From: Candidatus Hodarchaeota archaeon
GTDB taxonomy: Archaea > Asgardarchaeota > Lokiarchaeia > Sigyniarchaeales > SOKP01
Direction: 5' to 3'
Assembly: GCA_048887225.1 (NCBI GenBank)
Contig: JBHLJY010000014.1
Coordinates: forward strand, 1 to 64,000
Length of the DNA stretch: 64,000 nt
Of the stretch, positions 27,912 to 29,930 are shown in pieces. Numbering within the stretch: the first letter of the stretch is position 1; every line of letters begins with the position of its first letter. The notes under the pieces were generated by a model. That model had not been told where the DNA came from. It was given only the letters and a program-made list of their open reading frames with translations, and made no database searches. The translations under genes were made by a program, and so were the position numbers.

Positions 27912-28046
27912 GCGCTCTTAGTATAGTGGTAAGTATACGCTAAATTTGCCATCAAGCAAATTTGGGTATAACAGGTTGCCAACCTAAGGCGAGAATTATC
28001 GTCTCGGCTGTAGAGGGTGACCCGGGTTCAATTCCCGGAGGGCGCA
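27912..28046 (+). tRNA. tRNA-Gly(GCC) with two non-canonical introns (27939-27971 at 27/28; 27986-28015 at 41/42)
   Basis: Removing both introns gives a 72-nt cloverleaf: acceptor GCGCTCT/AGGGCGC, anticodon arm CCAGG-TTGCCAA-CCTGG, T arm CCGGG-TTCAATT-CCCGG; both introns fold as BHB-like motifs. Confidence 0.92.
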
Positions 28047-29630: not shown

Positions 29631-29733
29631 TGGGCGCGGCGAGATTTGAACTCGCGACCTTCCGCACGTCAAGCGGATGTCATACCGGGCTAGACTTCGC
29701 GCATGCACCTTTTTGGCAACATTACACGCGCCC
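29631..29733 (-). tRNA. tRNA-Val(GAC) with a 29-nt intron at position 9/10 (29696-29724)
   Basis: Spliced 74 nt: GGGCGCG TG|GTCTAGCCCGGTATGACA TCCGC TTGACGT GCGGA AGGTC GCGAG TTCAAAT CTCGC CGCGCCC A; BHB central helix CGCG/CGCG with bulges TG|T and AA|G. Confidence 0.9.
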
Positions 29734-29930
29734 TAAAAAACACGCCCATGTTATTTTGACATGAAACTTTTACTATTAAAGAATCATTCTCTAATTATTA
29801 AATTTATTCTAAGTTTAGACCACTTATTCATAAATTTAGTTAGGTTATTCAGTGAATAATTAAATTTTAATCGTAAAAAATCACTATTAATATTGAGATA
29901 TAACGAAAAATAAAGTGGTGTCTAAAAGTC

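Follow-up and report, generated by a model that had tools for sequence, protein, structure and literature searches.

Rules for the motif called bulge-helix-bulge (BHB), where archaeal introns are cut, were reportedly set out by Marck and Grosjean in 2003. The non-canonical BHB introns of archaeal transfer RNA (tRNA) genes, those in the D arm of Asgard tRNAs included, are short, about 20-35 nucleotides (nt), and combine a central helix of 4 base pairs with two 3-nt bulges and an intron hairpin (PMC4090602, bioRxiv 10.64898/2026.10.13.758758). Their reviewed positions, including those in Thermoproteales, are 20/21, 22/23 and others, with 3/4 as the extreme (PMC4090602). A tRNA-Val(GAC) gene of the same build is described here from a Candidatus Hodarchaeota archaeon, on the minus strand of a stretch of 64,000 nt (the window; positions 1 to 64,000 of contig JBHLJY010000014.1), and its host genome (G000) is likewise intron-rich and encodes both the endonuclease EndA and the ligase RtcB. 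The intron lies between tRNA positions 9 and 10, a location that a first reading of the sequence had not recognised as a common one, and 9/10 is absent from the reviewed list of positions. Unlike the published BHB introns, whose motif is treated as a matter of exon and intron alone, this gene also has an element in its leader with which the 3' strand of the acceptor stem can pair. We consider it probable that this element, a stand-in copy of the 5' acceptor strand, enables the splicing of the 9/10 intron.

In the reviews consulted, pairing between leader and trailer is described only for split and permuted tRNAs (PMC4090602, PMC4033280, PMC3978253). As in the split tRNAs of Nanoarchaeum equitans and Caldivirga maquilingensis (PMC4090602, PMC4033280), a sequence that is missing from the mature molecule would join the 5' and 3' pieces for EndA and the ligase. 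However, split tRNAs are made from two transcripts and their leader/trailer duplex is itself part of the BHB, whereas tRNA-Val is encoded as one transcript and the helix between leader and 3' strand lies outside the BHB. In a similar way, flanking non-mature sequence builds or enables the EndA substrate in permuted tRNA genes and in the processing stems of ribosomal RNA (PMC3978253, PMC3218864), but there the BHB consists of the flanks, which EndA then cuts off, while the leader of tRNA-Val is presumably removed by RNase P. The steps themselves, 3' trimming, 5' trimming and intron removal, are those of tRNA maturation in Methanopyrus kandleri, for which end trimming before intron removal has been deduced (PMC3695527). 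With such an ends-first order the leader of the tRNA-Val precursor would be cut off, and its acceptor stem locked, ahead of splicing; hence, in contrast to M. kandleri, the present layout would work only with splicing first, and the leader would reverse the order for one tRNA. The census of Asgard introns does not mention leaders and lumps the few introns of the acceptor stem and its junction as 'other' (bioRxiv 10.64898/2026.10.13.758758). The searchable literature, outside which several key subscription papers lie, yielded no published cis-spliced tRNA with a leader complement of its 3' acceptor strand. We regard the locus as a tRNA gene with a BHB intron to which a helper in the leader has been added, a new feature on a known system.

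The gene occupies positions 29733-29631 of the minus strand and is interrupted between positions 9 and 10 by a BHB intron of 29 nt. Read from 29748 to 29631, the strand carries UGGGCGUG, UUUUUUA, GGGCGCGUG, the 29-nt insert and finally 65 nt with the remaining tRNA, and GGGCGCG at 29733-29727 is the perfect pairing partner of CGCGCCC. Both ARAGORN and Rfam overlooked the intron and called an uninterrupted tRNA-Val at 29704-29630; they recognised the exon 2 portion, but took the terminal ATGCGCG of the intron for the acceptor strand, which leaves two terminal mismatches and an A at position 8. The motif was scanned for as 4 pairs joining the exon bases that precede the 5' bulge to the intron bases that precede the 3' bulge, with 3-nt bulges on opposite strands, each cut behind its second base, according to the definition in section 4.8 of bioRxiv 10.64898/2026.10.13.758758. 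Under these rules the 5' bulge spans 29726-29724 (U8, G9 and the first base of the intron), the 3' bulge spans 29697-29695 (intron bases 28-29 and G10), and the central helix consists of C4-G7 (29730-29727) paired with intron bases 24-27 (29701-29698). All of these central pairs are G:C in the host genome, and one is G-U in G044, one of the two other genomes with this intron (G025 and G044). The helix on the intron side begins at intron bases 2 and 23, where the intron hairpin (29723-29719 with 29706-29702) closes; three of its first four pairs are formed in the host genome, the first being an A.G mismatch, and all are formed in G025 and G044. The helix on the exon side is weak (G3-U11, G2-C12, G1-U13).

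Only one BHB-compatible deletion from the true 5' end, that of 29 nt after base 9, was accepted by ARAGORN as a full-length tRNA, a Val(GAC) of 74 nt. The spliced product folds into a 74-nt cloverleaf, and its 5' end is identical to that of the intron-less orthologue L005 from the same genus (GGGCGCGTGGTCTAG). As the first pair on the intron side (intron bases 2 and 23), the host genome has A.G, G025 has G.U, and both G044 and two metagenome contigs have U:A; this change on both sides fits the 9/10 register. Hence, the BHB geometry, the only accepted splice and the 5' end of L005 bear out the sequence-only reading, which had placed a BHB intron between nt 9 and 10 and had assigned acceptor nt 4-7 to its central helix; at the level of sequence and predicted structure, an intron of the EndA-spliced BHB type at 9/10 is confirmed. 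Since every part lies on the same strand, in one contiguous run of 118 nt and in collinear order, the gene is neither split nor permuted, and its central helix, bulges, flanking helices, restored canonical tRNA and a host with EndA and RtcB place it among the tRNA genes with BHB introns. No second copy of the intron was found elsewhere in the genome, which gives no sign of copying from another locus.

The spare strand UGGGCGUG, located 7 nt 5' of the tRNA, forms 8 contiguous pairs with CGCGCCCA, one of them a G-U pair, just as had been claimed from inspection of the letters (a near copy of the 5' acceptor strand 7 nt upstream, able to form 8 base pairs with the 3' strand and the discriminator). 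In the host genome's 36 defined tRNA leaders, an incomplete set because the finder was anchored on the T arm and missed tRNAs with unusual T arms, the next best match amounts to 6 pairs that are rich in AU and GU. The four 7-mers that pair fully with CGCGCCC have a frequency of 3.3e-5 per position in this genome (G+C content 30%), from which about 1.3e-3 matches are expected per leader of 40 nt. Given an element of only 7-8 nt a chance resemblance has to be considered, but this low expectation, the retention of the match in two sublineages and its recurrence in two further tRNAs of another phylum make it extremely improbable.

The 9/10 intron was searched for with a pattern that excluded the copy among 135 genomes of the family and among metagenome contigs. 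It was found in three of these genomes (G000, G025 and G044), all belonging to one genus, and in two metagenome contigs. The leader sequence GGGCGTG, a 7/7 match at -13 or -14, is present in all five distinct loci with the intron, whereas not even a 6/7 match occurs within 45 nt of any of the 27 tRNA-Val(GAC) genes without the 9/10 intron, a set that includes three genes from the same genus and five with introns in the D-loop. The locus thus passed the check that the sequence-only reading had proposed, namely whether intron and spare strand co-occur across tRNA-Val(GAC) loci. The copy and the following five T are identical at 12/12 positions between the two intron-bearing sublineages, while the intron is identical at 18/29 positions and the leader between promoter and copy at about 13/20 (approximately 63%, as counted on the alignment). 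A look for RNA runs containing the locus found none, and the DNA contigs from four runs contained only G025-like variants, with no new variation in the copy. The co-occurrence is suggestive, but the Asgard tRNA-Val set traces to a single intron gain.

Because the tRNA-Val genes represent one evolutionary event, independent cases were sought. Each species was first represented by one genome and scanned for Val-like 5' regions with an insertion between bases 8 and 11. This gave two genes from Bathyarchaeia, one of which had been matched via its upstream copy; in both, GGGGCCG occurs twice, separated by a few bases, and the 3' strand is CGGCCCC. The class Bathyarchaeia was then sampled twice with patterns free of the copy, one directed at the tRNA 3' end and the other at the junction of intron end and exon 2. 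A tRNA-Trp(CCA) with a 10/11 intron is present in 12 genomes, in which GGGGCCGU(A/G)G is followed by an intron ending in GCGG-A-N and then by UCUAG, and a tRNA-Gly(CCC), so called by ARAGORN, with the acceptor GCGGCCG/CGGCCGC and again a 10/11 intron is present in 2 genomes. The central helix uses C5-C6-G7-U8 in the Trp genes and likewise C5-U8 in the Gly genes. In all 14 of these genes, part of the leader can pair with the gene's own 3' strand, and the contiguous pairs counted from position 1 of the copy number at least 6 (Table 1). The copy tracks the acceptor of each tRNA, for example with a C at position 2 in the Gly gene only. Within the Trp set, positions 1-4 are invariant, positions 5-6 show only C-to-U changes that keep a G-U pair, and the remaining changes affect the seventh pair only. 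In contrast, the spacers between copy and exon 1 have unrelated sequences and lengths of 3 to 19 nt, and the Bathyarchaeial introns can no longer be aligned.

As controls served 25 distinct tRNA genes from Bathyarchaeia that have the same 3' strand and lack a 5'-proximal intron; a 7/7 leader match was found in none, and six contiguous pairs were found in one, where the match is the antisense of a neighbouring tRNA. The copy is also absent from all nine Asgard tRNA-Cys genes examined, and a survey of tRNA-Cys in the family (10 genes) revealed no 5'-proximal intron. We propose to recognise this class of genes by at least six contiguous leader pairs to the own 3' strand that are confined to genes in which a 5'-proximal intron draws on acceptor-stem bases for its BHB; the pairing is present in 5/5 tRNA-Val loci with the intron and 0/27 without it, and in 14/14 intron-bearing Trp and Gly genes against 1/25 controls. 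The compared genes point to three separate origins, spread over three tRNA species and two phyla, all with the leader element.

These comparisons also bear on the idea that the copy is a functionless by-product of the arrival of the intron, either a former 5' end that was left behind or a short duplication that arose on insertion of the segment with the intron. Intron and copy do appear together in one clade, the leader of which has also been remodelled with respect to the distance of the promoter (see below), and it is not known how tRNA introns come to be acquired in archaea (bioRxiv 10.64898/2026.10.13.758758). However, the copy spans the 7-nt acceptor strand only and never extends to bases 8-9 or to the intron, it has been held nearly constant in the 12 Bathyarchaeial genomes while spacers and introns diverged, and it arose at least three times, each time matched to a different acceptor stem. 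Such an origin without function is therefore unlikely, though it deserves to be kept in mind.

Table 1. Features of the tRNA-Val(GAC) locus in the window and leader segments of the related Bathyarchaeial genes
Feature	Positions	Strand	Remarks
Probable TATA-type promoter element TTTAATAGTAAAAG	29780-29767	-	Motif common to the tRNA-Val upstream regions of genus relatives
Spare acceptor strand UGGGCGUG	29748-29741	-	Complementary to the 3' acceptor strand and discriminator
U-rich spacer UUUUUUA between spare strand and exon 1	29740-29734	-	Run of 5-6 T kept in both sublineages
Exon 1, tRNA positions 1-9 (acceptor 5' strand G1-G7, then U8, G9), GGGCGCGUG	29733-29725	-	Perfect pairing with 29638-29632
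BHB intron at 9/10, 29 nt	29724-29696	-	BHB geometry, splice test, orthologue comparison
Exon 2, tRNA positions 10-73, 65 nt	29695-29631	-	D arm, GAC anticodon arm, T arm, CGCGCCC, discriminator A; CCA not encoded
3' acceptor strand CGCGCCC and discriminator A	29638-29631	-	Contested by exon 1 and spare strand in constrained folds
Trp leader segment GGGGCCG			7 genomes
Trp leader segment GGGGTCG			1 genome
Trp leader segment GGGGTTT			1 genome
Trp leader segment GGGGCCA			2 genomes
Trp leader segment GGGGCCC			1 genome
Gly leader segment GCGGTTG			2 genomes

Two further observations were made in Bathyarchaeia. An intron-less tRNA with the acceptor GGGGGCG, found in genome G223 about 40 nt upstream of the match in L123, has the sequence GGGGTTA 19 nt upstream, which forms 6/7 pairs with one internal mismatch; this sequence could be a chance match or a copy that decays after loss of an intron. 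Isolated tRNA 3' ends, consisting of a T arm and CGGCCCCACC with no matching 5' part upstream, occur at L088:1170-1523 and L092:1170-1523 and look like duplicated attachment sites of integrated elements.

The position of the copy relative to the promoter is similar in both groups. The core of the promoter element of tRNA-Val, AATAGTAAAAGTT, is identical in both intron-bearing sublineages, and a related motif lies 52-75 nt from the tRNA in the intron-less orthologues, compared to 37 nt in the intron-bearing Val clade. Some 22-25 nt separate the end of the motif from the copy's first G. Judged solely by its distance from the conserved AATAGTAAAAG element, the start of the tRNA-Val transcript is predicted at 29745-29750, and the copy would accordingly be transcribed and sit at the very start of the transcript, within a few bases. 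In Bathyarchaeia, a conserved TATA-like promoter motif of the TTAATATT type lies about 21-27 nt from the first G of the copy; with this spacing the transcript is expected to start at the copy as well. The U-rich spacer behind the copy of tRNA-Val may act as a flexible linker. Runs of T just 5' of tRNA genes are common in the host genome, in several cases 6-8 T that lie 3-12 nt before the 5' end (e.g. C13:46650-46666, and near 24745 on C11). Oligo-T is a terminator signal in archaea, and either transcription starts downstream of these runs or early complexes read through them.

Its location at the predicted start would also suit a copy that is functional outside splicing, as a G-rich initiation region or as a leader element tuning RNase P, stability or quality control. 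Pairing between leader and 3' end affects RNase P in other systems. Moreover, starts with several G are frequent in archaeal tRNA leaders (PMC3695527) and may explain part of the GGG(G). However, among genes that lack a 5'-proximal intron, no full copy was found in the 27 of tRNA-Val, the 25 from Bathyarchaeia and the 9 of tRNA-Cys, nor was one found in the 35 other leaders of the host genome, and G-richness does not account for the match to the acceptor at positions 2, 4, 5 and 6. A role of this kind therefore appears rather improbable to us.

The copy might, furthermore, be the real or an alternative first exon. The intron would then extend over about 43 nt from behind the copy to position 10, the acceptor stem would contain a G-U pair and the mature tRNA would start with GGGCGUGUU. 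ARAGORN accepts products that start with the copy and have a 43-nt deletion, and the CGUG of the copy can pair with the CGCG of the intron, but the helix on the intron side would reach only 2/4 pairs, which are non-adjacent. The product would also have U9, in which it would differ from all orthologues, whereas their exact 5' end is regained with the proximal exon, and the Bathyarchaeial copies are followed by G or A and not by the near-universal U8. Hence, we judge it very improbable that the copy serves as an exon.

We return to the reading preferred here, in which the leader copy stands in for the acceptor strand during splicing. In the precursor, the stand-in would pair with the 3' acceptor strand and the discriminator. 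The true acceptor stem would thereby be blocked, leaving bases 4-7 free to pair with the end of the intron and to build the BHB for EndA. The same helix would tether the short 5' exon, consisting of the leader and 9 bases, to the body of the tRNA through cutting and ligation, the 9-nt exon being held otherwise only by the G-U/G-C/G-U helix, and it would keep the precursor from being a substrate of RNase P until the intron has been removed. After ligation, the fully complementary real strand would displace the stand-in, and RNase P would then remove the leader. Splicing before RNase P cleavage, the tethering and the strand exchange are thus the steps that the model predicts.

Folding models of tRNA-Val, calculated with ViennaRNA for the secondary structure only, agree with parts of this scheme. 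The cost of the BHB-forming ensemble relative to all folds falls from 10.6 kcal/mol without the copy to 5.8 kcal/mol with it, and the probability of the true acceptor stem falls from 0.55 to 4e-6. With exon 1 engaged in the BHB, binding of the 5' fragment to exon 2 amounts to -6.5 kcal/mol in the presence of the copy and to 0.0 in its absence. The proposal that the leader holds the 3' acceptor strand so that the BHB can form, which had been put forward from the sequence, is hence supported by the comparison of genes as well as by the folding models.

Several points, besides the frequent multi-G starts mentioned above, weigh against a stand-in role. In the two-dimensional model the BHB is still not the fold of lowest energy, even with the copy. 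In the spliced form the helix of the copy is about 5 kcal/mol better than the cloverleaf, and the probability of the true stem is only 3.6e-4; since the copy would thus still be favoured after splicing, its displacement must rely on tertiary folding or on proteins. The predicted start of transcription could fall inside the copy (29745) and shorten it, and the seventh pair is lost in four of the Bathyarchaeial Trp copies. The Asgard case represents one gain in a narrow clade, with 3/135 family genomes. As to the intron itself, a second register, with a cut after base 10 and an intron of 27 nt, also gives a clean BHB in the host genome; this register was rejected, because it leaves two extra bases in the product and is lost in G025.

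Some observations concern other genes of the host genome and its relatives. No other 5'-proximal tRNA intron was found among the 36 tRNAs of the incomplete set; the introns of the other interrupted tRNAs are located in the D-loop, the anticodon loop, the variable region or the T-loop. For tRNAs with several introns the ARAGORN test of BHB deletions was too permissive, and it was not used for intron positions elsewhere. A second interrupted tRNA in the window (27912-28046, plus strand) is 135 nt long, scores 38 bits against Rfam and is called by ARAGORN as Gly(GCC) with one 41-nt intron. It looks like a tRNA with at least two non-canonical inserts, one of them after about base 27, and a two-intron search gave no resolved structure. 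Inserts of about 29 nt in the T-loop are present in a tRNA-Lys(CTT) (G000:C5:216321-216430, plus strand) and a tRNA-Val(CAC) (G000:C5:145180-145320, minus strand), with partial or weak Rfam matches. Regarding the splicing enzymes, the host genome encodes one RtcB gene (PF01139) and two open reading frames with an EndA domain (PF01974), about 200 amino acids each (G000:C1:186989-187213, plus strand, and G000:C3:61052-61300, minus strand), which would fit a two-subunit enzyme with a broad range of substrates. The Pfam match of RtcB is in two pieces, and removal of a BHB-shaped insert of 29 nt (G000:C13:33459-33487, plus strand) joins them in frame and restores GVGYDINCG; the messenger RNA of the splicing ligase thus itself seems to need splicing. 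In contrast to the scattered, intron-rich tRNA genes, dense arrays of 15-25 uninterrupted tRNA genes were seen in four relatives of the same genus (G044:C22:30300-33334, G049:C160:620-2118, G055:C308:5286-8170 and G052:C14:5171-8085), which may belong to a virus, a mobile element or contamination.

Beyond the single locus, it is conceivable that stand-ins are a convergent archaeal device, represented here by Asgard and Bathyarchaeia, and a precondition for introns within about 12 bases of the 5' end, with the usual order reversed to splicing first and RNase P last and an exon of 9-10 nt tethered as by the leaders of split tRNAs, so that such genes would link cis-spliced to split tRNA genes in their mechanism; we offer this generalisation tentatively, with somewhat more doubt than confidence. 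For annotation, a second acceptor-like 7-mer upstream of a tRNA gene flags a hidden 5'-proximal intron; the present gene is mis-called by standard tools. If the stand-in acts as proposed, the disposable leader strand would be a new cis-acting helper in archaeal tRNA processing, which would exert gene-specific control over the order of the processing steps and would explain how an intron survives where its cutting signal borrows the tRNA's own acceptor strand.
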